A stretch of DNA of 64,000 nt from a bacterium. Its GTDB lineage: Bacteria; Patescibacteriota; Minisyncoccia; UBA6257; UBA9933. A model generated the notes under the pieces. The model made no database searches and was not told where the DNA came from. It was given only the letters and a program-made list of their open reading frames with translations. The position numbers and the translations under genes are program-made. Shown here one piece after another: positions 16,739 through 34,028 of the stretch. Position 1 is the stretch's first letter. Each line of letters opens with the position of its first letter. The stretch lies in the NCBI GenBank assembly GCA_021786355.1, contig JAJYNK010000009.1:517-64516 (forward strand), written 5' to 3'.

Positions 16739-16742
16739 TTTG

Positions 16743-18026: not shown

Positions 18027-18377
18027 TTAGCAAGGAAATTTATTCCATGGACCTAAACTGCCGCCGACAAGAACTTTCAAAACCAAATCAACTATGAACC
18101 CGGCTAAAAGAAGAATGGCTATGCCGATTAAGATAGTTCTTATTTTTCCAACCGCTTCTTTGTACTTTCCGGGATCTCCGGCAGAAGTCATTATTTTAAA
18201 CCCCGCCCAAACCAAAGCGCCGAGCGCCAAAACAAACGCGAAAACAATGACAAAATTATAAATATTTTGAGCTAACTGGAATAAATCGCAAATAGTACAT
18301 TCGAGCTTAGCCGTTCCCGGACCGCACTGAACTAAAGGGGTCAAAGCCGCATTGGCAATATTAACTAAATTAATCAT
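18027..18377 (-). CDS. VirB2/TrbC-like pilin-family protein C
   Basis: FVIVFAFVLALGALVWAGFKIMTSAGDPGKYKEAVGKIRTILIGIAILLLAGFIV. Confidence 0.5.
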   Translation of the reverse strand: MINLVNIANAALTPLVQCGPGTAKLECTICDLFQLAQNIYNFVIVFAFVLALGALVWAGFKIMTSAGDPGKYKEAVGKIRTILIGIAILLLAGFIVDLVLKVLVGGSLGPWNKFPC

Positions 18378-18388
18378 GGTTTTTCGTT

Positions 18389-18442
18389 GTCATCCCGAGC
18401 GTGGCGAGGGATCTCGAGATTCTTCGCTTCGCTCTGAATGAC
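18389..18442. repeat. Repeated 5'-UTR element D copy 1 (GTCATCCCGAG...AGGGATCTCGAGATTCTTCGCTTCGCTCTGAATGAC)
   Basis: A near-identical copy at 33201-33262 overlaps the holB start codon. Short terminal inverted ends GTCAT/ATGAC. Confidence 0.75.
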
Positions 18443-18476
18443 TCTTTGTTGTTGGTTGTAGGTTGTTAGTTATTGG

Positions 18477-19760
18477 TTATTTAAATAAATTATTTATCTG
18501 CGCGCCGGCTTGGTCAAGCGCTTGCTGGGAATTTGTTTTTCCGTTCAATACTGATTCGACCGCGTTTGAAAAAATCTGACTGGTTTGGTCGGGGTCCGGC
18601 TGATACCAGGAATCAGCAGAAAGTGCTTGGTTTGCGAAAACATTCAAATCCGGATCATTTTGATATTGCTTGATTAAAATTTTTAAAGCCGGCGGGCGTT
18701 TTGTCGCCTGAAGATATGTAAGAGAATTTTGCGGGTCGGTTGTCAGATATTTTATAAAATCCCAGGCAAGATCGGAGTTTAAACTTTTAGAAGAAACCGC
18801 CAGACCCCAATAAGCGGCGTAATTTTTAGGATTCGAAGAATCGACTTGCGGCATAGAAGCAACCGTAAAATTCAAAAGCGGATTTTTTTGTTTGAGATAC
18901 GAAATCTGATTAGCATAACCGAAAATCATCGCGGCCTGCCCCTGACTAAATAAATCAAATGAATTGCCCAGATTCTGATTCCAAACATAGTTACTGCTGG
19001 CTGGCTTGGCAAAACCTGTATAAAAATCAAATGCGTTAGTTGCTTTGCCACTAAAATCGGCTCGCATAAAGGATGGGTCGACCATCAAAGAACCGTATTG
19101 AATCATTAGCGTATTTAAAATATCGGTTCCGTTTACAATATTTTTATCAGAGCTGCCGATAGCGGCGCCTGCTTGAAAAATCTGGCCGTTGGCTTGTTTT
19201 TTTGTAAGCCGTGTCGCCAAATTCGTAAAATCACTCCAATTATCGGGCGGAAAAACAACGGCATTGGCATTAAAAATATCTTTGTTGTAAAAAAGAGCGA
19301 GCGAGTCGAGGTAAAGCGGCGAACCATAAACTCTGCCCTGATAAGTAAAATCTTTTTCAACAACCTGCGGAAAAAGTTGGCGAATATTTGCCAAAGAAAT
19401 TTGAGCGTCAGCGGCTGGCATTAGAAGATCGCCTTGCTTTAAAAGCCAGGAGTTATGGAACATCAAAATATCCGGACCCTGATTTTTCGCCATCGCTCGA
19501 ACAAATTCATTTTCAAAATCCGCTTCGGGAATTTGTTGGTATTGAATTTGAACTTTGCGGTCGTAAAGCTTGCTATAGTTGTCTATAGTGGCCTGAAAAG
19601 CGGAAACATTATCAACTCCCCAGAAAACCAGTTTTCCCGACACGGAAGTTTTGGAGCAATTTTTGGTTATAGGGATAACGCAAAAAATACTTAAGACAAC
19701 TAAAATAAGAACAATTATTCCGACCCCGAATAAAACTATTTTTGAGCGATTATTATACAC
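18477..19760 (-). CDS. Extracellular solute-binding protein (ABC-type family 1, sugar-binding-like) with an N-terminal membrane anchor; no adjacent permease or ATPase
   Basis: About 427 aa with an N-terminal TM segment and typical SBP length and composition (..WGVDNVSAFQATIDNYSKLY..). Confidence 0.65.
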   Translation of the reverse strand: MYNNRSKIVLFGVGIIVLILVVLSIFCVIPITKNCSKTSVSGKLVFWGVDNVSAFQATIDNYSKLYDRKVQIQYQQIPEADFENEFVRAMAKNQGPDILMFHNSWLLKQGDLLMPAADAQISLANIRQLFPQVVEKDFTYQGRVYGSPLYLDSLALFYNKDIFNANAVVFPPDNWSDFTNLATRLTKKQANGQIFQAGAAIGSSDKNIVNGTDILNTLMIQYGSLMVDPSFMRADFSGKATNAFDFYTGFAKPASSNYVWNQNLGNSFDLFSQGQAAMIFGYANQISYLKQKNPLLNFTVASMPQVDSSNPKNYAAYWGLAVSSKSLNSDLAWDFIKYLTTDPQNSLTYLQATKRPPALKILIKQYQNDPDLNVFANQALSADSWYQPDPDQTSQIFSNAVESVLNGKTNSQQALDQAGAQINNLFK

Positions 19761-19770
19761 GAGTTAATTT

Positions 19771-22257
19771 TTATAGCGTAACCGCGCCAGCCAATTTGTC
19801 TCCTCCTTTTAACGTCATTATTTTTACTCCGGAGGTGGCGCGTCCCGCAGTCCGCACGCTTTTCAAGGTCGTTTTAATAATTTGTCCTTTTGTCGAAAGC
19901 GCCAAAAGCTCGGCTTCTTCAAAAATCACTTGCGCGCTGACTATTCTCCCAGTCTTGGAATTAATCTTAGCGGTTTTTATCCCTTGGCCGCTTCGCTTTT
20001 GAACTTTGTATTGCCCAAGTGAAGTTTGTTTGGCAAAACCATTTTCCGTAACAACCAAAACTTTCAGCTTGGAAAGTTTTTCCTTCGACTCTGTATTTAT
20101 TATATCAAGTCCAACGACAAAATCATCCTTTCTTAATTTTATCGCTTTAACGCCGGTGGCAATTCTCGACATCGCCCGAAGCTGGCTTTCTTTGAATCTT
20201 ATCGATTGTCCCAGAGCGGTTACGATTAAAACTTCGTCTTTGCCCGAAGACGATTTAACCCAATGAAGCACGTCGCCTTTCTGCAAATTAATACCGATGA
20301 TTCCGGTGCGTCTGATATTGGTAAAATCCTCAAGCGGAGTTTTTTTAATGACTCCATATTTAGTAGCCATTACCAAAAATTGTCCTTCCTGGCCTTTGCT
20401 TTTAGCGGGATAACTGACTATGGCGCTGACTTTTTCTTCGGGCGGAATTTCCAAAAAGTTTTGGATGACTTTGCCTTTGGCTTGCCGCGACGCCGCTGGG
20501 ATTTCATAAACCTTCGTTTGAAACACTCTTCCTTTTTCCGTAAAAAACAAAATATTGTCGTGGCTATTGGCCGCGATAAAATGCGAAATTAAATCCTCTT
20601 CTCCGACTTCAGAACCAATCAGACCTTTGCCGCCTCTTTGCTGGCTTCTAAAAACATCGGGATTTCCTCTTTTTATGTAGCCGTTTTGGGAAAGAGTGAT
20701 AACAACTTCTTCTTCGGTGATCAAATCTTCTTCTTTAAATTCCGTGAGGCCGCCTGCGACAATTTTAGTGCGCCTTTCGTCGCCGTAATTTTTTTTGATT
20801 TCCGAAAGTTCGTCTTTTATGACTTTTAAAATTTTCTGCGGACTATGTAAAAGAGCTTCCAATTCGCTTATTAACTTTTTCTTTTCTTTAAGCTCATCTT
20901 CTATTTTCTGCCTTTCCAGCGCCGCCAAAGTCGAAAGTTTCATTTCTAAAATCGCTTCGGCTTGAATTTCGGTAAGCTTGAAACGGGAAACCAAATTTTT
21001 GCGCGCTTCTTCTTTATCCTTTGATTTCTTAATCGTCTCGATGACTTTATCTATAACCGAAAGCGCTTTCGCAAGACCCTCTAAAATATGCGCCCGCTCT
21101 TTGGCTTTGCGAAGTTCAAACTCGGCTCTTCGGCGAACAACTTCTTTTCTGTGTTCGATATACTGGGCTAAAAATTCTTTCAGCGAAAGAAGCTGGGGCT
21201 GAAGTCCGCCAACCAAAGCGATTGTGTTCAAATTAAAATTCTTTTGAAGGTCCGTGTGCTTATAAAGCTGGTTTAATATTTTTTGCGCGGGCACATCGTT
21301 TTTAAGCTCAACGACAATTCTTAGTCCGTCGCGATCGCTTTCGTCGCGCAAATCTTTTATGCCTTGAATTTTTTTGTCGGTAACAAGGCCGGCCATTTTT
21401 ATCAGAAGCTCGGACTTGTTAACTTGATAGGGGATTTCGGTGATTATTATATTGAAATTATCCTTTTTTCTTTCTTCAATTTCCGCCACCGCCCTAACTG
21501 GTATGGAACCGCGGCCGGTAGAATACGCCTCGGCTATGGATTTTTTATCGTAAATAATGCCGCCGGTCGGAAAATCAGGACCTTGAACAAACTTCAGCAA
21601 GTCCTCGGTTGTGGCTTTGGGCGAATCAATCAAATGAAGAGTAGCGTCAATAACTTCGGAAAGATTGTGCGGGGGAATGCTGGTCGCCATACCTACCGCG
21701 ATACCCGAAGAACCGTTTAAAAGAAGGTGGGGGAGCTTAGAGGGAAGCACCGACGGTTCTTTTGTGGTGCCGTCATAATTGTCCAGCCAATTAACCGTAT
21801 CCTTTTCTATATCAATAAGAAGCTCTTCGGCTATTTTTGATAAACGGCACTCAGTGTATCTGTAAGCAGCCGCTGAATCTCCGTCCTGGCTGCCGAAATT
21901 GCCTTGGCCGTCAATTAAAGGATAACGAAGAGAAAAGTCCTGGGCCATTCTAACCAACGCGTCGTACACGGAAATATCGCCGTGCGGGTGATAGCTTTTT
22001 AACGTATCTCCGATAACCGAGGCGGATTTCCTATATTTGGCGCTCGCTCTTAGTCCGCTTTCCCACATTGCCCAAAGAATTCTTCGCTGAACCGGCTTTA
22101 AGCCGTCTCTGACATCCGGCAAAGCTCGCGAAACAATAACCGACATCGCGTAATCAAGATATGACTCTTGAAGCTCGTCGGATATTTCTCGCTTTTCAAT
22201 TCCTGAGCCGACGCGAGAACTGCTTTGATTATTTTCCGGTAATTTATCTTTTTTCAT
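19771..22257 (-). CDS. gyrA: DNA gyrase subunit A
   Basis: Contains [14 protein letters not shown] and the active-site region [11 protein letters not shown]. The C-terminal GyrA box QRGGKG is present. Confidence 0.9.
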
Positions 22258-22267
22258 ACGCTTTGCT

Positions 22268-22576
22268 TTACTGATTTTGTATATTTATAATTCTTTCGCC
22301 GCCGATTTTTGGTATTTTTGAATATAAATCGGAAGTTAATTCGCTAAATTTATATTTAATTGATTGGCCGATAACTGCCGCGCCGTTTTTAAAAACCGGC
22401 CAAAACGAAGTTTCGCGAGTTTCGTCCGCTTTGGAAGTCCCCACTTCTTTAATATAGGAACTCATATACCAAATCCAAAAAAAAATAACAATAATCATTG
22501 AAACCGCGCTTAAAAAAATAATCGCTTTTTTCTTTTTTTCTTCATTGGAATGCCTTATTTTACTTAACCAACTCAT
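22268..22576 (-). CDS. Small membrane protein (hypothetical)
   Basis: One TM segment ([21 protein letters not shown]). No recognisable family. Confidence 0.35.
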
Positions 22577-22585
22577 AAATCATTG

Positions 22586-23212
22586 CTAAATCGTCAATAC
22601 TACGACTTTTGTAGGCTTAATTTCCTCGATGTCTTTTTTCTTTATAACCAGCTTGTCCGTTTTTTCAACTTTCGCGGTATCTATTTCTTCCAAAAACTTT
22701 TTAATGTCGTCCGCCTTCCTTTTTAATCCGGGAACCTTATAAAAGGCGGGGATAACTATTTTCGGCTGAATCTGCTTTATCAATTTAACTGCGGTTTTTT
22801 GATCCAAAAACGGCTCGCCTCCCGCAGGCACAACCAAAATATCGATTCCGTTTAACCCTTCCATTATTTCCGGGGAAAGCGCTTGGGAAATATGCCCCAA
22901 AAAACAAAAATTTATCCCTTCCATTTCTGCCCAATAAATGGTTTTTAAAAATTTTTCAGATGATTCTTCCGCGACAAAAAAACCCTTAACGTTTACGCCG
23001 TTAAAATCATATTCTCCGGCTCCTAAAACTTCCGCGGCAGCTTCCTTGTCGGAATTATAAGACAAAGGAAAGGCGGTTAAAGTTTTTAAAACCGCGTCGT
23101 ATTTAAAACGCGGAGCTGTCAAACCGCTAGAGGACTCAATCGGATCTATTAAAATAACTTGGTCGCCGGATTGCAATTTTAAGCATCCTTCGCCGTAATA
23201 AGAAATAACCAT
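22586..23212 (-). CDS. MBL-fold (Lactamase_B_3-like) metal-dependent hydrolase family protein
   Basis: About 200 aa. The N-terminal pattern MVISYYGEGCLKLQSGDQVILIDP is typical of this family. Confidence 0.5.
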   Translation of the reverse strand: MVISYYGEGCLKLQSGDQVILIDPIESSSGLTAPRFKYDAVLKTLTAFPLSYNSDKEAAAEVLGAGEYDFNGVNVKGFFVAEESSEKFLKTIYWAEMEGINFCFLGHISQALSPEIMEGLNGIDILVVPAGGEPFLDQKTAVKLIKQIQPKIVIPAFYKVPGLKRKADDIKKFLEEIDTAKVEKTDKLVIKKKDIEEIKPTKVVVLTI

Positions 23213-23361
23213 AACAAAAGAATATCGCGTAGCCTTTAGGCGAAGCCTATATCGCGCCGAAGGCGCATTTATCCATAAATATCAGGAGGATACTTATAGA
23301 TATAGTTGATATTTGCTCGCTGACGCTCGCGATACTATAATTCACTATACCAGAGAAGCCC

Positions 23362-24519
23362 TTGCTTTTCAATTCCTTTTTGATTACAATTTTTCTCTAT
23401 ACTATATATATGACCGAAACTACAACGTTGCAAAACGATAAACAACTATCGGCAATGAACCAGCTTGCCAAAGCAGCCCCTAACATACTGAGCTTTTTAA
23501 AGCAGGGCGACCTGATAGAAGCCAAACTTTTGGCCCGGACACCGAAAGCGGTTCATTTTGATTTAGGCAAATACGGAACCGGCATCGTATACGGAATCGA
23601 ACTTTTAAACGCCAAAACCATAATTAAAAATCTTAAAGTTGGCGATCCGGTTAACGCCAAAATATCCGAAATAGAAAACAGCGATGGCTTTGTGGAACTG
23701 TCTTTGGCAAACGCCCATCATCAAAAAAATTGGCAGGAACTGGAGGATTTAAAGGAAAAAAACGAGCCCATCGCAATAAAAATAACCGGCGCCAACAGCG
23801 GCGGACTGGTGGCGGAACTTTTGGGAATCAAAGCGTTTTTGCCGGTTTCCCATCTTTCGTCCGAACATTACCCGCGGGTGGAAAAAGCGGACAAAGGCAA
23901 AATTTTGTCTGAATTAAAAAAATTATTGGGCCAGGAATTAAACGTTAAAATAATCGACCTGAACCATCGAACCAATAAATTAATAATATCCGAGAGGGAG
24001 GCGGTTGAAGGAAGCGCCAAAGACTTAATAGCTAAATATAAGGTGGGCGACGTTATTAACGGAATAATTACCGGCATCGCCGATTTCGGAGCTTTTGTCC
24101 GGTTCGCCGACAACCCGGCTATTGAAGGGTTGATACACGTTAGCGAACTTGACTGGCGACTAATAGACAATCCCAAAGAAATAGTCCAAATAAATGAAGC
24201 TGTTGCCGCGAAAATAATAGAAATAAAAGAAGACCGGGTTTTCCTTTCTTTGAAAGCGCTAAAAACCAATCCATGGGAAGAAGCCGCCGGCAAACTTAAA
24301 GAAGGTCAGGAGATTACGGGCGCTGTCCATAAATTCAATCCGTTCGGCGCTTATGTGGATTTAGAAGACGGCTTATGGGGACTGATACACGTTTCGGAAT
24401 TCGAATCGCTCGAAAAAATGAGAGACGAACTTGAAATCGGAAAAAAATACAACTTTATAATCGAATCCATAAAATCGGACGAAAAAAGAATCGTTCTGAA
24501 ACTAAAAAAAGAAGAGTAA
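23362..24519 (+). CDS. rpsA: 30S ribosomal protein S1-like (multiple S1 domains)
   Basis: Four S1-like repeats (GDLIEAKLL.., GDPVNAKISEI.., GDVINGIITGIADFGAFV.., EITGAVHKFNPFGAYV). Confidence 0.75.
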   Translation: MLFNSFLITIFLYTIYMTETTTLQNDKQLSAMNQLAKAAPNILSFLKQGDLIEAKLLARTPKAVHFDLGKYGTGIVYGIELLNAKTIIKNLKVGDPVNAKISEIENSDGFVELSLANAHHQKNWQELEDLKEKNEPIAIKITGANSGGLVAELLGIKAFLPVSHLSSEHYPRVEKADKGKILSELKKLLGQELNVKIIDLNHRTNKLIISEREAVEGSAKDLIAKYKVGDVINGIITGIADFGAFVRFADNPAIEGLIHVSELDWRLIDNPKEIVQINEAVAAKIIEIKEDRVFLSLKALKTNPWEEAAGKLKEGQEITGAVHKFNPFGAYVDLEDGLWGLIHVSEFESLEKMRDELEIGKKYNFIIESIKSDEKRIVLKLKKEE

Positions 24520-24525
24520 ATAAAA

Positions 24526-24552
24526 ACGGTCGCCTAAGGCGACCGTTTTTGT
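24526..24552 (+). terminator. Rho-independent terminator ACGGTCGCC-TAA-GGCGACCGT followed by T5
   Basis: Directly downstream of the S1 gene. Confidence 0.8.
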
Positions 24553-24587
24553 GTTGGAATTATAAATATAAAGTTGTAAAATAGTTA

Positions 24588-25949
24588 TTGATGAAATTAA
24601 CTTTTTGCGGCGGGGCCGGTGAAGTAACTGGCGCCAATTATTTATTGGAAAGCGAAGGCGCGAAAGTTTTGATTGACTGCGGGCTTATTCAAGGCGGAAC
24701 TTTTTGCGATCCAAAAAATTTCGAGGACTTTCCTTACGACCCGAAAACCATCGACGCGGTTTTTGTTACGCACGCGCATATCGACCACACCGGCCGGTTG
24801 CCGCTTTTGTATAAAAGAAATTTTAAAGGAACTATTTATTCTACGCCGCCGACAAAAGATTTTGCCGAACATCTCCTGATAGACTCGGAGGGTATTTTAA
24901 GAAAAGAATTTTTGAGAGAGAAAAAACCTCCGCTTTATTCCCTTTCCGATATAAACGAAACATTGAAGCTTTGGAAAAAAATCAGTTATCACGAAACTCT
25001 TCGCGTCAAAAATTTGATAATCGAATTTTTCGACGCCGGCCATATTTTGGGCTCTTCTTTTATTTCCATAACTTCCGACAGCGGAAAAAAAATCGTTTTT
25101 TCCGGAGATCTGGGAAACTACTCGGCGCCGATGATTAAGGACACGGAGCCAATACCGGCCGCCGATTACGTATTGATTGAATCCACTTACGGCAACCGCT
25201 TGCACGGAGATTTTTCAAAAAGAAAAGATGAACTGGAAGACGCCATTGAAGAAACGGTAAAAAATAACGGCGTGCTGTTAATTCCGGCTTTTGCGATGGA
25301 AAGAACGCAAGAACTTTTATATGAATTGAACGATCTGGTCGAAAAAGGGAAAATTCCGAGAGTGCCGATTTTTATAGACAGCCCGCTGGCCATAAGACTG
25401 ACTGATGTTTATAAAAAATTCTCCCAAAATCCCCTTTATTTCGATACCGAAGCCATTAGCCGGCTTCAAGGGGGCGACGCTATTTTCGATTTTCCGGGGC
25501 TAAGAACATCGCTAACCGTCGAACAATCCAAAGAAATCAATTTCATAAAACCGCCGAAAATAATAATTGCCGGCTCGGGAATGAGTAACGGCGGAAGAAT
25601 AATTTTTCACGAACAGCTTTATTTGTCAGATCCCAGAAACGCGATTTTGTTTATCGGCTACCAAGGCAAAGGAACTTTGGGAAGAAGCATCCAAGACGGC
25701 GCCAAGAAAGCAAAAATTTTCGGACAAAGCGTGGATGTAAATTGCAAAATAAAAGAAATAAGCGCTTACTCGGCGCACGCCGACCAGGCAAAACTTTTGG
25801 GGTGGATAAAACCGATCCGCGAATCTATACAAAAAGTTTTCATCGTACAGGGCGAAGAAGAAGAAATGATTCCTCTTGCCAATAAAATAAAAAACGAGAT
25901 GACGATCGACACATTAATCCCCAAAGAAGGAGAGTCTGTTGTGTTATAA
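24588..25949 (+). CDS. MBL-fold beta-CASP family RNA-metabolising hydrolase (RNase J/CPSF-like)
   Basis: VTHAHIDHTGRLPLL motif 2 plus a downstream beta-CASP-like region. 453 aa. Confidence 0.7.
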   Translation: MMKLTFCGGAGEVTGANYLLESEGAKVLIDCGLIQGGTFCDPKNFEDFPYDPKTIDAVFVTHAHIDHTGRLPLLYKRNFKGTIYSTPPTKDFAEHLLIDSEGILRKEFLREKKPPLYSLSDINETLKLWKKISYHETLRVKNLIIEFFDAGHILGSSFISITSDSGKKIVFSGDLGNYSAPMIKDTEPIPAADYVLIESTYGNRLHGDFSKRKDELEDAIEETVKNNGVLLIPAFAMERTQELLYELNDLVEKGKIPRVPIFIDSPLAIRLTDVYKKFSQNPLYFDTEAISRLQGGDAIFDFPGLRTSLTVEQSKEINFIKPPKIIIAGSGMSNGGRIIFHEQLYLSDPRNAILFIGYQGKGTLGRSIQDGAKKAKIFGQSVDVNCKIKEISAYSAHADQAKLLGWIKPIRESIQKVFIVQGEEEEMIPLANKIKNEMTIDTLIPKEGESVVL

Positions 25950-25956
25950 TTAAATA

Positions 25957-26970
25957 ATGCTTAATAAAGAAATACATCTCTCTTCTAAAATTTTTGAAAA
26001 TCATAACGAAAAGGCGCTTCGAGACGGATTCGGCGAAGGCTTAATGGAGCTCGGGGAAGAAAATAAAGACGTGGTTGTCTTGTGCGCGGATTTAAAAGAA
26101 TCAACACGTTGCCACTGGTTTGCCGATAAATTTCCCGAAAGATTTTTCGAAATCGGCGTCGCGGAACAAAACATGGCGACAATCGCCGCCGGACTGGGAG
26201 TAGCCGGAAAAATTCCTTTTATTTCTTCTTATGCGGTTTTTTCTCCTGGCAGAAATTGGGAGCAAATAAGAACTACAATCGCTTACAACGATTCGAACGT
26301 AAAAATTGCGGGACATCACGCCGGAATTTCAACCGGAGCTGACGGCGCAACCCACCAGGCAACCGAAGACATCGCCACAATGCGGGCGATGGCAAATATG
26401 AAAGTAATCGTTCCGTTTGACTATGAAGAGGCAAAAAAAGCGACTATAGCGGCTGCCAAAATCTGGGGCCCGGTTTATATAAGATTGGCGCGAGAGAAAA
26501 CTCCGGAAATAACAACAAGCAAAACCCGTTTTGTTCCGGGAAAATCCTATATCTTATGGGAATCAAACCCTTCGACGAGCTCAGGACGGAGAAAACCGCA
26601 GGCGGTAATTATCGGCGCCGGACCGTTGCTCTATAACGCGCTTTTGGCGGCAAAAGAACTGGAAAAAGAAAAAATCGGGGTGGTAGTTTTAAATTCTCAC
26701 ACCATAAAACCTCTTGATGAAAATAAAATCGTTGAATTGGCAAAAAAATATCGGGCAATCGTAACAGTTGAAGAACATACTATAATAGGAGGGCTGGGAT
26801 CGGCCGTAGCCGAAGTTTTGGCAAAACACGCGCCAACGGCAATGGAGTTTGTGGGCATACAAGATGTTTTTGGCCAAAGCGGAGAGCCAAAAGAATTGAT
26901 TAGCAAATATGGCATGGGAACAAAAGACATAGAAAATGCCGTTAAAAAGGTTTTAAAAAGAAAAAGATAA
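25957..26970 (+). CDS. Transketolase C-terminal subunit (pyrimidine-binding plus C-terminal domains); no N-terminal subunit gene adjacent
   Basis: FFEIGVAEQNMATIAAGL, GISTGADGATHQATEDIATMRAM and HTIKPLD motifs of transketolase C-terminal sections. Confidence 0.85.
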   Translation: MLNKEIHLSSKIFENHNEKALRDGFGEGLMELGEENKDVVVLCADLKESTRCHWFADKFPERFFEIGVAEQNMATIAAGLGVAGKIPFISSYAVFSPGRNWEQIRTTIAYNDSNVKIAGHHAGISTGADGATHQATEDIATMRAMANMKVIVPFDYEEAKKATIAAAKIWGPVYIRLAREKTPEITTSKTRFVPGKSYILWESNPSTSSGRRKPQAVIIGAGPLLYNALLAAKELEKEKIGVVVLNSHTIKPLDENKIVELAKKYRAIVTVEEHTIIGGLGSAVAEVLAKHAPTAMEFVGIQDVFGQSGEPKELISKYGMGTKDIENAVKKVLKRKR

Positions 26971-26990
26971 TCAAAACACTGGGGAGTTGA

Positions 26991-27298
26991 CCCCGCACCT
27001 TTTAAGCTCACAATCGTTTTTTGAAAATGTATTACATGTATATACTAAAAAGCAAGGTTAATGGTGAATTGTATATAGGAAGCACCGGTAACATCAAAAA
27101 ACGATTAGAAGAGCATAATTTGGGAAAGGAAAAAGCTACCAAAAGTTATAAACCTTGGAAAATCGTTTATCTAGAAGGCTATTTTTCTGAAAATGACGCC
27201 AGAACCAGAGAACACAATCTTAAACACTTCGGCAAGGTTTATTCCCAGCTGAAACGAAGAATTAAAAATAGCCTTCAAGAGTCTTAAAAGGTGCGGGG
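26991..27298. repeat. 16-bp perfect inverted repeat CCCCGCACCTTTTAAG (26991-27006) / CTTAAAAGGTGCGGGG (27283-27298) bracketing the GIY-YIG ORF
   Basis: Verified base by base. The right arm begins at the ORF's stop codon. Confidence 0.85.
27021..27287 (+). CDS. GIY-YIG nuclease domain protein (88 aa, homing-endonuclease-like)
   Basis: YMYILKSKVNGELYIGSTGNIKKRLEEHN matches GIY-YIG. Confidence 0.8.
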   Translation: MKMYYMYILKSKVNGELYIGSTGNIKKRLEEHNLGKEKATKSYKPWKIVYLEGYFSENDARTREHNLKHFGKVYSQLKRRIKNSLQES

Positions 27299-27346
27299 TT
27301 GATGATATAATAAAAGCGACAAAACGGGCGATCAGGAGAAAATAAT

Positions 27347-28387
27347 ATGTTCGACATAATCACCATAGGAACCGCGACTCAAGACGTTTTTTTGACCGGC
27401 AAACTTTTTAAAGTCATAAAAGATCCAAAACACTTGGAAAAAATCGGAATCTTAACCGGAGAAGCCGAGTGTTTTGCTTTGGGCTCGAAAATAGAAATAG
27501 AAAAACCGGTTTTTTCCATCGGCGGAGGAGCGGCAAACGCGGCCGTAACCTTTAGCCGACAAGGATTAAAAACAGCTTCTTTGATAAAGCTGGGGAAAGA
27601 CCCGGAAGCCGAATCTATTTTGAAAGAATTGAAAAGGGAAAAAGTTTTCCCGCTTCCTATTTATGACAAAAAGTTGAGCACTGCTTATTCAGTCGTGCTT
27701 CTTGCGCCGTCAGGAGAAAGAACCATTTTGGTTTACAGAGGCGCCTCAAAATATTTAAAAATAAGCGAAATTCCTTTTAATAAAATAAGATCCCGCTGGG
27801 CTTACATTTCTCCGGGAAACATTCCGTTTCCAACACTTCTAAAAATTTATTCACACCTGAAAAAACAAAATACGCTTATCGCCATAAATCCATCAAAACA
27901 TCTTATGGAAATGGGCATTAAAAAACTTGAGCCGATCTTATCGAAAAGCAAAGTTGTGATTTTAAACCGCGAAGAAGCGTCTTGTCTTACGAAAACTAAA
28001 TACCAGAACGAAAAAGAAATTTTCCGGCGACTGGACAAAGCCGTTTTAGGAATAGCGGTGATGACCGACGGACCAAAAGGAGTTATCGTTTCGGACGGAA
28101 GAAAAATATATCAAGCCGGAACTTTTAAAAACAAAAAAGTTGTCGACGAGACAGGAGCGGGCGATTCTTTCGGAAGCGGATTTGTTTGCGGGCTAATTCG
28201 CAAAAAAGAAAGATGCGATAAAAATAAATGCGTACCCGCCAACATCACTTACGCGATACGGCTCGCTACGGCAAACGCAATTTCAAATCTTGAAAAAATC
28301 GGGGCCACGGAAGGGCTGCTGACAAAAAACGACTTTGAAAAAAATCCAAGGTGGAAAACCTTAAAAATAAAGATTAATGATATTTGA
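27347..28387 (+). CDS. PfkB-family carbohydrate kinase (ribokinase-like)
   Basis: GGGAANAAVTF near the N-terminus and the DETGAGDSFGSGF anion-hole motif. Confidence 0.8.
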   Translation: MFDIITIGTATQDVFLTGKLFKVIKDPKHLEKIGILTGEAECFALGSKIEIEKPVFSIGGGAANAAVTFSRQGLKTASLIKLGKDPEAESILKELKREKVFPLPIYDKKLSTAYSVVLLAPSGERTILVYRGASKYLKISEIPFNKIRSRWAYISPGNIPFPTLLKIYSHLKKQNTLIAINPSKHLMEMGIKKLEPILSKSKVVILNREEASCLTKTKYQNEKEIFRRLDKAVLGIAVMTDGPKGVIVSDGRKIYQAGTFKNKKVVDETGAGDSFGSGFVCGLIRKKERCDKNKCVPANITYAIRLATANAISNLEKIGATEGLLTKNDFEKNPRWKTLKIKINDI

Positions 28388-28460
28388 ACTTCGCGCCTAA
28401 TTATTTTTCTTTTGCAATTTGGAATTTAACTTTTTTTAGTGTTAAATAGATAAACAATGA

Positions 28461-28580
28461 ATCCCGTTAGAAATAATGAACAATATGACTTTATGTTATC
28501 AAATACTTTAATTTATAAAAACGTCGATTATTTAGCATTATTTAACTTTGGCACATTTTTTGTGCAATTTCTAACGGGAT
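28461..28580. repeat. Hairpin repeat, family B copy (ATCCCGTTAGAAAT ... ATTTCTAACGGGAT). The right arm overlaps the ATG of the next gene. Inner hairpin GCACA-TTTTT-TGTGC.
   Basis: 14-bp perfect arms about 92 nt apart. A motif ATGAACAA(T/C)AT occurs after both arms. Confidence 0.8.
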
Positions 28581-29163
28581 GAACAACATAGAAAATTATC
28601 GAAAACCTAAAATCTGCGTTTCCGGAACCGCAGAATTAAGCGATTTCAGCGAAAATACTAATTTAATCGCCGAAAAATTAGGCGAGGAAATAGCCAAACA
28701 AGGCGCGATTTTGGTTGATGGAGCAACAACCGGTTTTCCGCAATGGGCGGCAAAAGGCGCAAAAAATGTCGGGGGCTTTGTAATCGGATTTTCGCCGGCG
28801 GACACGGAAAAAAACCACGTTGAATTATTCGGACTGCCGACCGATTACCACGATATGATAGTTTATACCGGCTTCCATTATTCAGGGCGGAATTTAATTC
28901 TTACTCGATCTTCCGATGCGGTTATTGTCGGTCCGGGAAGAATCGGCACAATCAACGAATTCACCATAGCTTTTGAAGACAACAAGCCTTTGGGAATTTT
29001 ACAAGGCGATTGGGACACGGACGAAACTTTTAAAATGCTTATTGAAAAATCTCACCGCGCCCAGGAAAGGAAAGGAAAAATATTTTTTGATTCTAATCCT
29101 AAATCGTTGGTTGAAAAAATAATCGAAGCTATCAATAAAGAGACTTTAAAATACGAAAAATGA
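28579..29163 (+). CDS. LOG/TIGR00725-like Rossmann-fold protein
   Basis: VDGATTGFPQWAAKGA and VGPGRIGTINEF resemble the GGGxGxMG and PGGxGTxxE motifs of the LOG family. Confidence 0.6.
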   Translation: MNNIENYRKPKICVSGTAELSDFSENTNLIAEKLGEEIAKQGAILVDGATTGFPQWAAKGAKNVGGFVIGFSPADTEKNHVELFGLPTDYHDMIVYTGFHYSGRNLILTRSSDAVIVGPGRIGTINEFTIAFEDNKPLGILQGDWDTDETFKMLIEKSHRAQERKGKIFFDSNPKSLVEKIIEAINKETLKYEK

Positions 29164-29220
29164 CCCCAATTATTCGATGATCTTAAAAGGTCGAGAATAA
29201 ATTCATCGGGACAAATAAAA

Positions 29221-29481
29221 ATGGCCAATTCAAAAAAAGAAAAACCGATCGGCAAAGTAACCCACTATTACGGCAATATCAACGTGGCAATAGTTAAATT
29301 CAACAAAAACGTAGACGTCGGCGCAAAAGTCCATTTTAAGGGCGCCCACACCGATTTTGAACAAGAAATCGGCTCTATGCAGTTTGACCACAAAGATATT
29401 TCTTCCGCTAAAAAAGGCCAAGACGTGGGCATAAAAGTGAACGAAAAAGTTCACGAAAACGACGAAGTTTTTGAAGCTTAG
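29221..29481 (+). CDS. Hypothetical small protein (86 aa)
   Basis: ORF with a plausible RBS. No confident family. Confidence 0.35.
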   Translation: MANSKKEKPIGKVTHYYGNINVAIVKFNKNVDVGAKVHFKGAHTDFEQEIGSMQFDHKDISSAKKGQDVGIKVNEKVHENDEVFEA

Positions 29482-29506
29482 CCTTTAAATTTCTTAATAT
29501 CAAAGC

Positions 29507-30640
29507 ATGATGTTCTTTTTGTTGTCCACCGGACTCCTGGTCGGGTCAATTATCGGGGCGGGAATATTTTCTCTGCCGTATGTTTTTTCAAAATCCGGAT
29601 TTCTCGCCGGAATTATTTATCTTTTAGTTTTAGGTATTTGTACTTTTTTAGTTCATCTAATGTACGCGGACATTATCGCGAGAACCAACGAAACACACCA
29701 TCGTTTTCCGGGATACGCCAAAATTTATCTGGGAGAAAAATCCGGACAACTGGCCGGAATCATAGTGTTTCTGGCAAACTTTTTAACACTGACGGTTTAT
29801 TTAATCCTTTCAATAAGTTTTTTTAATTTAATCAGCCCGCAGTTTCCGCTTTATTATAAATTTTTAATATTTTGGATTCTCGGCTCACTGACTATTTTTT
29901 TGAAAATAGAAAAGGCGGCGTTTTTTGAAATACTGACAACCTCGCTGACAATCGCGGTCATTGTCGCGGTTTTTTTGGCCGGGTACTTTTACGGATTGCC
30001 GGCGGTAAATTCGCCGTCCACGACTTTAAATAATTTAACCCTGCCTTTCAGTCCGACTTTATTTTCTTTATTGGGGCTTGGAGCAATTCCCGCGCTTCTG
30101 GTTTATTTTCGGGAAAAAAAATTGCCTTTTAATAAAATCAAGCGGGTTCTTTTGTGGTCAACGCTAATTGTCGTTATCGCCTATATTTTATTTGTTTTAG
30201 GAATAAGTCGACTTTCGGGAACGGTTTCCGAAGACGCGGTCTCGGGACTGATAGGAAATATCTCTCCGACGATTTTATTTTTCCTGGGAATTTTCGGAAT
30301 TGTTTCGCTTTTAGATTCCTATATGTCGGTGGCTTTTGACGTGGAAAAAACAATGCACTACGAATGGAAGCTGCCGAAGTGGCTTTCTAAAAGTTTCGTG
30401 GTTTTTCTTCCGCCATCCCTTTATTTTTTGGGATTTCAAAATTTTCTTTCTTCAATCGGCGTTGTCGGCGGAATCTTATTTGGCTTGTGGGGGATAATGA
30501 TAATTCTTGTCTGGCGGAAAACCTCGGCTTCATCCTGCCCCACGCAGATTGTCGAAAAAATCCCCAACTGGCTTATTTATTTTCTTTTTGCCGTCTTTAC
30601 CGCAGGAATCGTTTATGAGATTATTTACGCGTTAGCGTAA
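29507..30640 (+). CDS. Amino acid transporter-like polytopic membrane protein
   Basis: About 11 TM segments. The N-terminal GAGIFSLPYVFSKSG resembles Aa_trans/tyrosine-tryptophan permease families. Confidence 0.55.
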   Translation: MMFFLLSTGLLVGSIIGAGIFSLPYVFSKSGFLAGIIYLLVLGICTFLVHLMYADIIARTNETHHRFPGYAKIYLGEKSGQLAGIIVFLANFLTLTVYLILSISFFNLISPQFPLYYKFLIFWILGSLTIFLKIEKAAFFEILTTSLTIAVIVAVFLAGYFYGLPAVNSPSTTLNNLTLPFSPTLFSLLGLGAIPALLVYFREKKLPFNKIKRVLLWSTLIVVIAYILFVLGISRLSGTVSEDAVSGLIGNISPTILFFLGIFGIVSLLDSYMSVAFDVEKTMHYEWKLPKWLSKSFVVFLPPSLYFLGFQNFLSSIGVVGGILFGLWGIMIILVWRKTSASSCPTQIVEKIPNWLIYFLFAVFTAGIVYEIIYALA

Positions 30641-30665
30641 ATTAGCCACTAGAAAAAGAAAAATT

Positions 30666-30737
30666 GCGCCCGTAGTTCAACGGATAGAATACATCCCTCC
30701 GAAGGATGAGATCGAGGTTCAATTCCCCGCAGGCGCA
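30666..30737 (+). tRNA. tRNA-Arg (anticodon CCG) with two C-A mismatches (acceptor 6-67, T stem 51-63)
   Basis: Acceptor GCGCCCG/CAGGCGC, D arm GTTC-AACGGATA-GAAT, anticodon stem CATCC/GGATG with loop CTCCGAA, T loop TTCAATT. Confidence 0.55.
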
Positions 30738-30782
30738 CAAAGGGAAGATTTTACCTAGCACCACCGCTGCCCATTACGAGGG

Positions 30783-31817
30783 TCAAAACCTCGCAATGTC
30801 CTTGATGGTTATCAGTAGCATCAAAGCAAGAAGCAATGCCAAACCAACAGCGTTGGCGTAACGTTCAAACTTAACAGGCAATGGAGAGCCTTTTATTTTT
30901 TCAATTAACAAAAACAAAATTCTTCCGCCGTCCAAAGCCGGAAACGGAAATATGTTTATCGCCGCCAAGTTCAAAGAAATCAGGGCTAGAAGCTGAAATA
31001 AATAAACTATACCTAATTTACTGACCTCGCCGGTGATTTTTACGATCCCGACCGGCCCGGTTAGTCCTGCTAAACTGCCCTCGCCCAAAATCGCGGTTTT
31101 AATAAGATTAAATATCGCCACATAAATCATTGAAAAAATTTCAAACGCGCTTTTTAAACCCTCCCAAACAGCTTTGAACACGTTCATTTTAGGCTGGCCC
31201 GCGTCTATCAAAGCCACTCCCAAAGCGCCTTCGCCAACAGGCGGATTTTTTCTAGGCGTTGATTTTATTTCAATTTCTTTTCCGGCGCGCTCTATTTTTA
31301 AATTAACTTTTTGCCCGCGATGCTGGTCTATAAAACTTATAAAATCTTTAGTTGTTTTAAAATCAACCAGCTTGTCATTAGATAAAATACCGCTTTCAGC
31401 GGCCGGGCTGCCCGCCTTAACATCGGTAATAAAAACCGCCTGCGGCACGCCAATCGAAAAAACAATCGCGATAAGTATCCAGCCGAGGATAAAATTCATC
31501 ACCACTCCGGCGGCGATAATAATAATTCTTTTCCAAACCGGCAAAAATGAAAAATTCCTCGATTTATTCTCTTTTGAAAGAATTTCGTCTTTATCTTCCT
31601 GGTCTTCTCCGTAAATTTTCACGAACCCGCCAAAGGGAAGCGCGTTGATACTATAAACAGTTTCTCCTTTTTTCTTTCCCCAGATTTTGGGGGGTAAGCC
31701 GAATCCGAATTCCTGAATCCAAAGCCCGAATTTTTTGGCAGTCAAAAAATGCCCTAATTCGTGGACTATAATAAAAACGGAAATAAAAATTACAACCACT
31801 ATAATTCCTAGCAACAT
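30783..31817 (-). CDS. rseP: RIP metalloprotease RseP (site-2 protease) with a PDZ domain
   Basis: HELGHFLTAKKFG zinc motif, PDZ region and C-terminal LDGG. Confidence 0.85.
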   Translation of the reverse strand: MLLGIIVVVIFISVFIIVHELGHFLTAKKFGLWIQEFGFGLPPKIWGKKKGETVYSINALPFGGFVKIYGEDQEDKDEILSKENKSRNFSFLPVWKRIIIIAAGVVMNFILGWILIAIVFSIGVPQAVFITDVKAGSPAAESGILSNDKLVDFKTTKDFISFIDQHRGQKVNLKIERAGKEIEIKSTPRKNPPVGEGALGVALIDAGQPKMNVFKAVWEGLKSAFEIFSMIYVAIFNLIKTAILGEGSLAGLTGPVGIVKITGEVSKLGIVYLFQLLALISLNLAAINIFPFPALDGGRILFLLIEKIKGSPLPVKFERYANAVGLALLLALMLLITIKDIARF

Positions 31818-31822
31818 AAATG

Positions 31823-32374
31823 TTATTCTTCTATTTCTTTAATTTTCTGTTCCAATATTTTTTCGATTTCTTCATTGGCTTTGTCGGTTGCTTCCTGAAT
31901 TTTGTCTTTTGCTTTGAATTTACCGTCTTCGGTGATTTTGCCGGCCTCGAATTCATTTTTGCTTTCTTTTATGGCTTCGTCTCTGTGGCTTCTTATTCCG
32001 ATGCGCGCTGATTCGCCTTCTTTTTTAACAATTTTAATAAGCTCTTCGCGGCGCTCTTGCGACAAAGGAGGCAGATTTATATGAATCACATTTCCGTCAA
32101 CCGAGCTGGAAACGTTTAAATTGGAAGATTCAATGGCTTTAGCGACAATATTAACCGCGTTTTTATCCCAAATTGATATTTGAATTTCTCGAGGCGGGAC
32201 AACGCTAATAGCGCCAACTTGCTTGACAGTTAATTTCTGGCCGTAATACTCCACTGAGATGTCTTCCACGAGCTTAGGAGAAGGCCGGTTGCCGCGAACC
32301 GTGCCAAGTTCCGATTTCAAATGTTCCATATTTTGTTTTAACCCAAGCTCGAGGTTTTTTAAGATAATATCCAT
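31823..32374 (-). CDS. frr: Ribosome recycling factor
   Basis: LKSELGTVRGNRPSPKLVEDI..., 183 aa, typical Frr. Confidence 0.9.
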   Translation of the reverse strand: MDIILKNLELGLKQNMEHLKSELGTVRGNRPSPKLVEDISVEYYGQKLTVKQVGAISVVPPREIQISIWDKNAVNIVAKAIESSNLNVSSSVDGNVIHINLPPLSQERREELIKIVKKEGESARIGIRSHRDEAIKESKNEFEAGKITEDGKFKAKDKIQEATDKANEEIEKILEQKIKEIEE

Positions 32375-32497
32375 TGGGTTATTTTAGCATTTAAGATCGG
32401 CGCGCGAAAGCACTATTTTATAATTAATCAAAATTCTGCGCCGCGCACTATAGTATACTATAGTGCCATCAGCTAATCCAGGGTTGTCTTCGCTTAA

Positions 32498-33205
32498 TTA
32501 TTTTTTAGCGTTTTTTAAAAGACTTTCAACCAGTCGAACTTGGAGTTTTTTGTTTAAATTAAAACGCTTCATTAAAGAAAGACGGTTAAGAGCCTCTTTT
32601 AACACGAGGTGATTTTTTTTAACGTCCTTTGCCAGTTTGGCGATTATTTCGTTAAGTTTTTCTGTTTGGTCATCGCCATTTGATTCTTTTTTTTCTTTTT
32701 CTGATTTTTCAGGATGGGGACTCGCCCTCCGAAGCCTTGGCGAAGGAGGGAAATAAATTTTCTGGAAACGCGAAGAAACGGTTGGTAAAAGATTTTCCGG
32801 ATTTTGCCCTATTAAAATTATCAAGGACTGCTTGGGCGGTTCTTCAACTATTTTTAATATCGCGCTTTGAGCTTCAGAAGTTAATTTTTCGGCTCCGGTG
32901 ATTATAACTGTTTTTCTTTTAGCCACAGCCGGCCGATAATAAAGAAATTTTTGCAGATTGCGAATTTCATCTATGCCGATACTACCCTTTTCATTGGGGC
33001 CGATAACGGACAAATCCTGCAGCAGCTTGCTTGAATCGCCAAACTTTCCGATTTCCAAAAAATTCGCCAGCTTTTTGGCAAAATTAAAAATTTCTTTTTG
33101 GCTTTCTCCGAAAAAAAAATAAGAATGGGAGAGATGGCTGTTTTCGGCAAGCGATTTAAAATTTTGTTCGGCTTCTTTGAAAAAATCCATTGGTTTATTT
33201 GTCAT
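32498..33205 (-). CDS. holB: DNA polymerase III delta-prime subunit-like (AAA+ clamp-loader lid)
   Basis: SHSYFFFGESQ (Walker A-degenerate, delta-prime-like) and the TVSSRFQKIYFPP sensor region. Confidence 0.65.
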   Translation of the reverse strand: MTNKPMDFFKEAEQNFKSLAENSHLSHSYFFFGESQKEIFNFAKKLANFLEIGKFGDSSKLLQDLSVIGPNEKGSIGIDEIRNLQKFLYYRPAVAKRKTVIITGAEKLTSEAQSAILKIVEEPPKQSLIILIGQNPENLLPTVSSRFQKIYFPPSPRLRRASPHPEKSEKEKKESNGDDQTEKLNEIIAKLAKDVKKNHLVLKEALNRLSLMKRFNLNKKLQVRLVESLLKNAKK

Positions 33206-33262
33206 CCCGAGTCGCCTTAGGCAACGAGGGATCTCTCGATTCTTCGCTACGCTCAGAATGAC
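33201..33262. repeat. Repeated 5'-UTR element D copy 2. Its end (GGGATGAC) supplies the holB ATG.
   Basis: Shares GTCATCCCGAG and AGGGATCTC..GATTCTTCGCT.CGCTC.GAATGAC with copy 1 at 18389. Confidence 0.75.
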
Positions 33263-33281
33263 AGACGCAGCCTAAATACGA

Positions 33282-33689
33282 TTATCTCTTTTTCATTTTA
33301 ATTATTTTCAAAACGTCTTTACCGCTTAAAATTTCCGCGTTAGACCCGATAACTTTGAGTCCGTTATATTCCTTAGGGTCGTGGGAAGCGGTAATTATCG
33401 CGCCCGGAGCTTTGAATTTATTAGCACAAAAGTTGAGCATAGGCGTTGTAGAAAGACCGATATCGATTATATCCAATTCACCTTTACTTCCTTCAATAAG
33501 GCCTTTCACGAAAGATTTTTTAAGTTGCGGGGAGCTCAAGCGGACATCCTGGCCGATAAAAAATTTTTTATTTTTATTTTTGGTAAAATATTTTCCGAGA
33601 GCAGAGCCAATTTCAAAAAAAGTTTTTGAATTAACATCGGAAGGATATTTTCCTCTGATATCGTAAGCTCGAAAGATACCTTGGTTCAT
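33282..33689 (-). pseudogene. Phosphohexomutase (PGM/PMM/GlmM family) fragment: domain I only, 135 aa
   Basis: Contains the catalytic-Ser loop ITASHDPKEYNG (compare TASHNP) but ends after domain I. Full enzymes are about 450 aa. Confidence 0.6.
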
Positions 33690-33690
33690 T

Positions 33691-33718
33691 GGTTAATTAG
33701 TTAATTGGTTGATTAGTT
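33691..33718. repeat. Octamer-repeat motif M (GGTTAATTAGTTAATTGGTTGATTAGTT) immediately upstream of the start codon of the 33689 gene
   Basis: Related copies at 13234-13257, 54811-54840 and 62110-62146. Confidence 0.75.
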
Positions 33719-33815
33719 CAATAATACAGAAGTAGGTCACGGATGGCAATTTTACTTTACAAAAAAACTATATCTGCTACTTTTAAGACAGCACAAATCC
33801 AGCGAGGAGGCGATT

Positions 33816-34028
33816 ATGAGACTTTCAGTCGAATGCCTAGAGGCGGCCATCACAAGATTACACAACCTTCGGGCTGCTCAGATCATCGCAGAAAACCCAG
33901 CCGTTGCCAGTCTCGTAGCGGAAGAAACCCGGGATGCTGATTACTTATTAAAAAATATCAATGGGCTCCTGCGGGAAAGAATCACCCTCGATCTGATCTT
34001 TGACAAGATAGTCAACCCCGGTAACTGA
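33816..34028 (+). CDS. Hypothetical 70-aa protein in a higher-GC insert (33740-34260)
   Basis: GGAGG RBS 7 nt before the ATG. GC clearly above the backbone. Confidence 0.35.
   Translation: MRLSVECLEAAITRLHNLRAAQIIAENPAVASLVAEETRDADYLLKNINGLLRERITLDLIFDKIVNPGN

Follow-up and report, generated by a model that had tools for sequence, protein, structure and literature searches.

Two unrelated genes in the 64-kb stretch of DNA analysed here (the window), one encoding a pilin-like protein and the other holB, are each preceded by a copy of the same short element, which raises the question of what this element is and how it came to lie at both places. The initial annotation offered three proposals: a miniature mobile element, a shared cis-regulatory leader and a small RNA gene. 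We consider it probable that each copy is a head-to-head heterodimer (tags outward) of hairpin units of the repetitive extragenic palindromic (REP) type, gained in this lineage and essentially selfish or neutral at both sites. The miniature mobile element is the closest of the three proposals. The element does belong to a dispersed repeat family and both of its sites are empty in relatives, but it is a doublet of the REP or REPIN type rather than a miniature inverted-repeat transposable element (MITE) bounded by terminal inverted repeats (TIRs).

In the window sequence, copy A (54 nt) occupies 18389-18442 and copy B (62 nt) 33201-33262, both on the plus strand and both where the initial annotation had placed them. 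The 25-nt right block, with up to 3 mismatches allowed, occurs exactly twice in the window and in none of 100 shuffles, so that no copy is expected by chance. The 11-nt left end GTCATCCCGAG is exact at both copies, and besides it a repeat finder reported a 38-mer shared at 89% identity. The genes on either side of each copy run in the same direction, on the minus strand, and the two copies are oriented alike with respect to the downstream gene, as had been observed before. No further copy was found elsewhere in the window or in an 8-kb rightward extension of the source genome.

The element had been described as having short terminal inverted ends (GTCATCC / GAATGAC). Instead, it is an imperfect palindrome over its entire length, composed of two inverted units of ~27 nt; the repeat finder returned copy A as an overlapping inverted repeat of 32+32 nt. 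Each copy joins a unit with an ATCCC stem to one with an ATTCT stem, and their 3-nt tails abut with no spacer. The four units are as follows.

18388-18415, plus strand: left unit of copy A, with a TGTC tag, stem ATCCC/GGGAT, interior GAGCGTGGCGA, loop GTG (a degenerate GNA) and tail CTC
18416-18443, minus strand: right unit of copy A, AGTC-ATTCA-GAGCGAAGCGA-AGAAT-CTC as read on the minus strand
33200-33235, plus strand: left unit of copy B, TGTC-ATCCC-GAG-[ TCGCCTTAGGCAA ]-CGA-GGGAT-CTC
33236-33263, minus strand: right unit of copy B, TGTC-ATTCT-GAGCGTAGCGA-AGAAT-CGA on the minus strand, fully canonical

Three of these four units carry the TGTC tag. In the right unit of copy A the tag is replaced by AGTC and there is an A.A mismatch at stem position 5, while the core is canonical; the cores of the two right units are GCGAAGC and GCGTAGC. 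The left unit of copy B is a long-loop variant whose 13-nt insert has a small hairpin of its own (GCC-TTA-GGC). Folded as RNA, copy A reaches -30.4 kcal/mol on the plus strand and -23.8 kcal/mol on the minus strand (z-scores -5.3 and -3.6), and copy B -20.1 and -23.2 kcal/mol, respectively. The two units of a copy can also fold together as a single hairpin of ~25 bp.

The hairpin unit and its family

The unit has the general form TGTC-AYYCY-GA-GC-GNA-GC-GA-RGRRT-CTC, a conserved module of ~27 nt (GAGATTCTTCGCTNCGCTCAGAATGAC); d(TGTCATTCTGAGCGAAGCGAAGAATCTC) is an example of its GTC strand. From 5' to 3' it comprises an unpaired TGTC tag, a pyrimidine-rich 5-bp stem starting with A, tandem G.A/A.G, two G-C pairs, a GNA triloop and a 3-nt tail that is usually CTC. 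An unbiased search for GTC, any 5-mer, GAG, a loop, CGA and the reverse complement of the 5-mer returned 430 perfect-stem units with 9 stem types, where less than one unit is expected by chance. The stems seen include ATTCT, ATCCT, ACCCT, ATCCC, ATTCC and ATGCT, among others, and the commonest 5-nt centre is CGNAG, with N free. Longer loop inserts of 6-32 nt occur in about one quarter of the units. The tail is CTC in 193 of the 430, followed in frequency by CTG, CCC, CTT, CTA and CCA, and a C follows the stem in nearly all of them.

A set of bystander units, defined by the 11-nt core alone and not matching the search pattern, is free of this ascertainment. Here, a fully complementary 5-bp stem is present in 31 of 98 units, against ~0.1 expected. 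The tag of these 31 is TGTC in 26 and CGTC in one, and most have a CTC-like tail. A check of the predicted structure for covariation, made on 41 distinct GTC-tagged units of the family, was positive for the outer stem. All five outer pairs vary on both sides, and compensatory cells number 22 against 7.2 in shuffles (a count reached in 0 of 500); 88.5% of cells are paired, compared with 18-49% when the partner is slid. The first stem pair is A-T in 30 of the 41, and the second is T-A in 28 and C-G in 9.

The interior was studied in 59 units with stems other than ATTCT, for which it had been left unconstrained. Positions 1-11 form G.A in 56 of the 59 and positions 2-10 form A.G in 55. Pair 3-9 shows clean covariation (G-C in 42, A-T in 16), C-G accounts for 52 cases of pair 4-8, and the loop reads G-N-A, N being free. 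Read on the opposite strand, these positions would become T.C/C.T mismatches and a TNC loop, and the non-canonical conserved features are therefore confined to the GTC strand. Because the G.A pairs never become Watson-Crick pairs, selection may act on a specific single-stranded shape, and this pattern of conservation argues for selection on one strand of the unit, as single-stranded DNA (ssDNA).

The family is widespread. Scanning IMG/VR with 18 specified bases of the right end yielded at least 120 viral or metagenomic contigs; some of these matches (L005, L023, L029, L054 and others) represent a chance match within a conserved phage gene and were excluded. The exact 25-mer occurs in at least 120 representative genomes of many phyla, cultured isolates included. 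Among the matches listed are Nitrospirota, Chloroflexota, Acidobacteriota, Bacteroidota (with the cultured Mucilaginibacter, Hymenobacter and Pedobacter), Ignavibacteria, Planctomycetota, Verrucomicrobiota, Omnitrophota, Nitrospinota, Fibrobacter, Firmicutes, Alpha- and Betaproteobacteria, Desulfobacterota and, within the Candidate Phyla Radiation (CPR), Gracilibacteria and Saccharimonadales. A curated plasmid collection contains the unit in 5 cyanobacterial plasmids, with several copies each, and a curated phage collection in one entry; in none of these is it annotated as a repeat. A full-text literature search with unit k-mers and pseudo-peptides returned unrelated primer matches only.

In IMG/VR the units are mostly solitary, sometimes form an inverted pair at variable distance and are sometimes in tandem. 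Neighbouring units are arranged with tags outward (head-to-head) in 77 cases, inward in 16 and in tandem in 32 (12 of these being calls that overlap or are nested). Outward pairs divide into homo- and heterodimers at 33:36, and tight heterodimers like those of the window are found elsewhere (e.g. L102 and L203). By crude open reading frame (ORF) calls, 247 of the units lie between genes, 113 fall within long ORFs (of which many, in high-GC DNA, are probably spurious) and 48 are located at the ends of contigs. The genes around the intergenic units are tandem, convergent or divergent at 150:51:46, and the position of units between genes shows a weak tendency toward the upstream stop and no preference for 5' regions.

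Two further observations concern the family in viral contigs. Several units per contig are present in an uncultivated phage lineage represented by 32 IMG/VR loci (capsid-like protein at ~60% identity; e.g. L014, L042, L047, L050, L085, L086 and L117), often ~25 nt from the gene for the capsid-like protein, and these phages are plausible vehicles for spread of the unit across phyla. Tandem arrays of units occur in L064 (period 33 nt, 7-nt spacers) and L110 (period 108 nt, longer fixed spacers) and are not CRISPR-like (CRISPR: short palindromic repeats that are clustered and regularly interspaced).

Gain of the doublets and competing explanations

The GyrA encoded in the window is identical to GyrA on contigs of the metagenome-assembled genomes GCA_027423135.1 and GCA_027330945.1, as well as on contigs of several ENA assemblies; its nearest named homologues are from Candidatus Wolfebacteria (Patescibacteria/CPR). 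Copy A lies between the stop codon of a gene for an extracellular solute-binding protein (SBP) and the ATG of the pilin gene. This site is empty in genomes with 92% (L127) and 89% (L128/L129) identity in GyrA, where 5 nt (AATTT) separate the stop codon from the ATG; the gap is 21 nt in a relative with 76% identity. In the window it measures ~99 nt and is made up of a CCAA-rich stretch of 34 nt, the hairpin of 54 nt and a further 11 nt. Copy B lies between the stop codon of a gene for a protein with domain I of phosphoglucomutase/phosphomannomutase (PGM_PMM_I) and the ATG of holB. These are 2 nt apart in L131, a relative whose glycyl-tRNA synthetase (GlyRS) is 96% identical, and thus the site is empty there as well, whereas the 91-nt gap in the window is composed of 19 nt, the 62-nt hairpin and 10 nt. 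The spacers adjoining the two hairpins are listed below.

18378-18388, minus strand: A-rich spacer of 11 nt, AACGAAAAACC, from the foot of hairpin A to the pilin ATG, absent in relatives
18443-18476, minus strand: CCAA-rich, lineage-specific spacer of 34 nt, from the SBP stop codon to hairpin A
33191-33200, minus strand: A-rich spacer of 10 nt, AAATAAACCA, from the foot of hairpin B to the orthologue-supported holB ATG
33263-33281, minus strand: lineage-specific spacer of 19 nt, from the PGM_PMM_I stop codon to hairpin B

The distance from copy A to the pilin ATG, previously given as 12 nt, is thus 11 nt (18378-18388). No hairpin units were found in ~100 kb of syntenic sequence from the relatives. 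Within the source species, copy A is present in all six strain contigs examined and copy B in the one examined. Since both sites are empty in the nearest available relatives, parsimony favours the view that the doublets lie within DNA gained in this Wolfebacteria lineage.

The two copies share the ATCCC+ATTCT heterodimer composition, which suggests that the doublet was copied as a unit, in a REPIN-like manner. Spread would act on the GTC strand as ssDNA. A trans-acting enzyme encoded elsewhere may recognise the hairpin together with the 5' tetranucleotide tag, and an HUH/Y1 transposase of the RAYT (REP-associated tyrosine transposase) or IS200 type would be the obvious candidate; alternatively, the units could be spread by host replication or repair. 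As a side effect, two gene pairs formerly 2-5 nt apart would have been split, and each polycistronic mRNA would now include a co-transcribed hairpin of about -23 kcal/mol, located 10-11 nt before the start codon of the downstream gene. In this position it could form a barrier to 3' exonucleases as well as uncouple translation.

Several observations weigh against this account. No candidate mobilising enzyme was identified: there is no HUH/Y1 or other transposase in the window, no RAYT in the window plus 8 kb or near units elsewhere, and no recurrent protein family (transposase, recombinase, IS110-type and primase included) within 2.5 kb of the units in genome loci. The neighbour search returned just phage structural-protein clusters of one related phage lineage and a generic histidine-kinase-like family. 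Alignments of filled and empty sites show no visible target-site duplication (TSD), flanking direct repeat or precise excision footprint at either copy. The inserted DNA exceeds the doublets, by 34+11 and 19+10 nt, and because the flanking proteins of the relatives are also 4-11% diverged, the boundaries of the insertions are fuzzy. Copy number is low, with just 2 in the ~72 kb of source genome scanned. The exact doublet (junction plus right unit) has 0 matches in the representative genomes, which do not include the source species, and a metagenome scan with the junction GGGATCTCNNGATTCTTCGCT gave 22 matches, none of them the element; these are unrelated high-GC sequences, mostly one conserved coding region. 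The argument for ssDNA draws on sequence conservation only. A DNA nearest-neighbour model, which has no terms for sheared G.A pairs or GNA triloops, gives -1.9 kcal/mol for the unit and -1.7 kcal/mol for its complement, and the asymmetry of G.T versus A.C mismatches (3 versus 1) is underpowered. Finally, the two copies are alike in orientation and lie almost equally far from the downstream ATG, a pattern not expected if the element is purely selfish (n=2).

A broader reading can be put forward tentatively. The unit may be a single pan-bacterial ssDNA hairpin that spreads horizontally and is partly phage-borne, with its G.A pairs and mini-hairpin core recognised by a conserved enzyme or by a replication factor of the host. 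In that case the Wolfebacteria doublets would reflect a recent colonisation, and no REP-type repeats would have been documented before them in a CPR/Patescibacteria genome.

The hairpin could also be primarily a cis-acting RNA element of both operons, retained because it keeps 3' exonucleases away from the upstream cistron, or because it tunes or uncouples how the pilin and holB genes downstream are translated. We regard this as unlikely. The copies are oriented alike to the host genes and lie 10-11 nt before the downstream ATG with a similar A-rich spacer after them, yet for just two copies a common orientation is expected by chance in 50% of cases. All strains of the species sampled carry copy A and copy B was found in the one strain checked, while in close relatives the same genes abut without a hairpin. 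The minus-strand RNAs fold at -23.8 and -23.2 kcal/mol, and REPs have been reported as mRNA stabilisers and translation modulators (as cited in PMC3733652 and PMC6006769). However, the G.A/GNA features of a doublet's two units fall on opposite RNA strands, and there is no U-run after the hairpin, so that it is no intrinsic terminator. At the level of the family, 84 of 150 cases have the GTC strand as sense strand (84:66; 17/30 and 26/44 for solo units), meaning that units have no transcription-strand bias, and enrichment at gene ends is no more than a weak trend. With no orientation bias or 5' preference in the family and relatives that do without the element, the data do not support a shared cis-regulatory leader as the explanation for its presence.

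Less probable still is that the units are not mobile themselves but are recognition or landing sites, either targets of a recombinase or IS110-type element (cf. dRS3 of Neisseria) or ssDNA signals for initiation, priming or exclusion of single-stranded DNA-binding protein (SSB). Such a role would suit the strand-specific conservation and the frequency of units in viral contigs. The architecturally similar CGTC-1 repeats include Neisseria dRS3 (PMC3733652), and GCGNAGC-type motifs, which bind SSB poorly, are found at phage G4-type priming origins, RSF1010 ssiA and N4 virion RNA polymerase (vRNAP) promoters (PMC13037366). On the other hand, no recombinase, IS110-type or primase gene recurs near units, and the sole integrase-like gene of the window is Xer-type, 4 kb away and conserved in relatives. 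Extra lineage-specific DNA does lie beside both hairpins, with a 593-nt two-ORF cassette 400 nt from copy B, but the flanking DNA is short and non-coding. The spread of hundreds of copies would also go unexplained.

A small RNA gene, expressed as a discrete hairpin transcript of ~55-60 nt from two copies, is very improbable in spite of the stable fold of copy A (z-scores -5.3 and -3.6). At gathering threshold Rfam matched only tRNAs in the window, and a permissive scan of copy A gave noise only (<=18 bits); no promoter or terminator signals were detected at copies A and B on either strand. Both copies also sit inside operon spacers, and neither orientation nor gene context is fixed in the family. 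A chance resemblance, or a single local duplication, might fit the presence of just two copies in the window and the absence of the exact doublet from genome and metagenome scans, but is excluded by the family-level data, since 0 matches are expected and the unit occurs in hundreds of unrelated sequences with covarying stems.

Other candidates were rejected, namely an intrinsic (Rho-independent) terminator (the scanner is silent at both copies, there is no U-run, and the minus-strand tails are AACGAAAAACC and AAATAAACCA), a hammerhead-like ribozyme (CUGA...GAA...GUC is incompatible with the core), a CRISPR repeat (tandem cases have 7-nt spacers) and an attC site.

Flanking genes and other repeats of the window

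The following genes flank the two copies.

18027-18377, minus strand: T4SS_pilin/TrbC-like protein of 116 aa, downstream of copy A
18477-19760, minus strand: extracellular solute-binding protein (SBP_bac_1) of 427 aa, upstream of copy A
32498-33190, minus strand: holB (DNA_pol3_delta2), downstream of copy B, starting at the orthologue-supported ATG (MDFF...)
33282-33689, minus strand: PGM_PMM domain-I-only protein of 135 aa, upstream of copy B

The gene labelled pilin gene C in the initial annotation encodes a small membrane protein of the T4SS_pilin/TrbC type. Copy B had been thought to supply the ATG of holB. The longest holB ORF does reach 33205, inside copy B, where the ATG at 33203-33205 is an in-frame upstream codon chosen by longest-ORF logic and by at least one gene caller. 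In the L131 relative, by contrast, holB starts at ATGGATTTTTT, which aligns with window position 33190. The conserved start is thus most likely 33190, 15 nt downstream of the in-element ATG. We also rejected truncation of the PGM gene by insertion of copy B, as the same relative has a domain-I-only gene (141 aa). This domain-I-only protein (135-141 aa; 33282-33689 in the window and L131:11413-11838) is conserved in the species and its relative and represents a stand-alone domain gene. For annotation of the window, the start of holB should shift 15 nt downstream, outside the hairpin; short ORFs that translate the repeat (…ILRFAQND… / …VILSEAKNL…) are spurious; and the elements are inserted repeats rather than conserved regulators.

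A lineage-specific insert of 593 nt (33690-34282) lies between the GlyRS gene and the PGM_PMM_I gene, 400 nt from copy B, at a place where L131 has a 5-nt spacer. It contains ORFs on the opposite strand at 33816-34028 (70 aa, GGAGG 6 nt upstream, no Pfam match) and 34065-34232 (55 aa, Cys-rich), and terminates in a terminator-like hairpin, AAAAAGCAGGCCCGGCGCCTGCTTTCTTTT. It may be a small mobile or toxin-antitoxin-like cassette. Elsewhere in the window (44000-51100), dnaA (48498-49856) and dnaN (49974-51089) accompany a cumulative GC-skew minimum near 44 kb, which places the replication origin within the window and therefore copies A and B on one replichore.

Other repeats are also present. 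A perfect palindrome of 16-24 nt, (A)GTGGTATAGTATACTATACCACT(T), occurs at 14244, 16893, 43180 and 54902, with a fifth copy in the 8-kb extension (L276:2210); it is absent from the syntenic loci of relatives and is a possible operator or bidirectional promoter-like element. Another palindrome, ~50 nt long and with arms CCGTTAGAAGT...ACTTCTAACGG, is intergenic at 16690-16739 and 38160-38209, in opposite orientations. Its arms are also found in the relatives L130 and L131, and this hairpin family is thus common to Wolfebacteria. A repeat with 8-nt periodicity, TTGGTTAA/TTAGTTAA, is located at 13174-13203, 33673-33726, 54805-54842 and 62108-62145, directly upstream of several start codons. It resembles the 34-nt spacer beside copy A (18443-18476) and is absent from the relatives' loci; the source species seems to have expanded many of its intergenic spacers. 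A short repeat family, GCCGAAGYTCTACTAC(GGGGT), at 14887-14910, 43799-43885 and 56711-56758, partly consists of hairpin-forming inverted pairs and is confined to the source species among the loci examined. The window further encodes two free-standing LAGLIDADG homing-endonuclease-like ORFs (5031-5534 and 54277-54891, both on the minus strand), and a 72-aa GIY-YIG ORF is located on a contig of the same strain (L275:20271-20489).

Comparison with known systems

On our best reading, the known elements that the doublets most resemble in architecture are the CGTC/TGTC-tagged REPs described by Di Nocera et al. (2013). According to that paper (PMC3733652), these have a CGTC tag, which is TGTC in many repeats (variants TGTC and CCTC), a stem of 8-9 bp with A-T residues at positions one and two, a loop of 4-5 nt and a 3-nt tail of consensus CCA. 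Head-to-head dimers predominate, tail-to-tail dimers are rare and head-to-tail dimers negligible; some dimers have 1-2 bp or no spacer, and heterodimers are common. They were reported from five phyla, include intragenic copies as well as Neisseria dRS3 and Rickettsia RPE-4/-6, and have no associated transposase gene. The unit is alike in its tag, 3-nt tail and lack of transposase association, and in part in the head-to-head predominance of its dimers. Heterodimers, dimers lacking a spacer and intragenic copies are likewise seen in both. Its stem has nine stacked positions, of which positions 6-7 are invariant G.A/A.G, where 8-9 bp were published, and its loop is 3 nt (GNA), or 5 nt (CGNAG) without the inner G-C pairs, compared with 4-5 nt. 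The tail is CTC and not CCA, and the tag is almost always TGTC. Head-to-head pairs outnumber tail-to-tail pairs at 77 to 16, but tandem pairs (32, with 12 overlapping or nested) are not negligible, and the 25-mer is found in far more phyla than five. The comparison with CGTC-1 to -4 draws on their description in the text, and the published supplements contain neither the unit sequence nor its peptide.

The REPs of E. coli and Pseudomonas and the REPIN-RAYT system share with the doublets an intergenic location and two inverted units that form one long hairpin, apparently copied as a doublet. A hairpin with a 5' tetranucleotide tag is also the form in which HUH/Y1 enzymes take their ssDNA substrates, following the logic of IS200/IS605 TnpA and RAYTs (PMC6006769). 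The tag differs, however, being TGTC in the unit and GTAG/GTGG in REPINs, and no RAYT flanked by units was found in the window plus 8 kb or at the unit loci. REP-type repeats are usually lineage-specific, and REPIN populations are lineage-specific and vertically inherited. Unlike these, the unit is nearly identical across phyla, from CPR to Bacteroidota, Acidobacteriota, Firmicutes and viral contigs.

The subterminal hairpins of IS200/IS605 elements and of palindrome-associated transposable elements (PATEs), which are non-autonomous derivatives of these, are likewise small and imperfect, have an adjacent guide or cleavage tetranucleotide and act in ssDNA with no target duplication; the absence of a TSD at copies A and B is consistent with action of the IS200/IS605 type, as the latter makes none. 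Those elements have distinct left and right ends around a body, whereas here the repeat is the hairpin itself, alone or in inverted pairs. MITEs derived from DDE transposons (Correia, RUP, Nezha) resemble the element in being short, non-coding, intergenic and dispersed, and can be co-transcribed and fold. A MITE with TIRs and TSDs was nevertheless rejected, because the element consists of two hairpin units with no TIR-bounded body and no flanking direct repeat.

The family-level lead outranks the local finding, since it concerns a mini-hairpin repeat that is almost the same across phyla, for which no mobilising enzyme is known and no description was found in the literature. Di Nocera et al. 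(PMC3733652) posed the spread of transposase-less CGTC-type REPs as an open question, and the unit is a tractable case for how such repeats spread and which protein reads them. Its centre is exactly GCGNAGC, with N free, and so matches the mini-hairpin DNA d(GCGNAGC) of Hirao and co-workers, a motif of extraordinary stability that resists nucleases, binds SSB poorly and is known from ssDNA priming origins and N4 promoters (PMC13037366). The known cases are single replication or transcription sites of phages and plasmids, and not a dispersed, tagged repeat with an outer stem and tail. The unit family would provide a natural high-copy biological context for a DNA motif so far known mainly from a few phage and plasmid origins.

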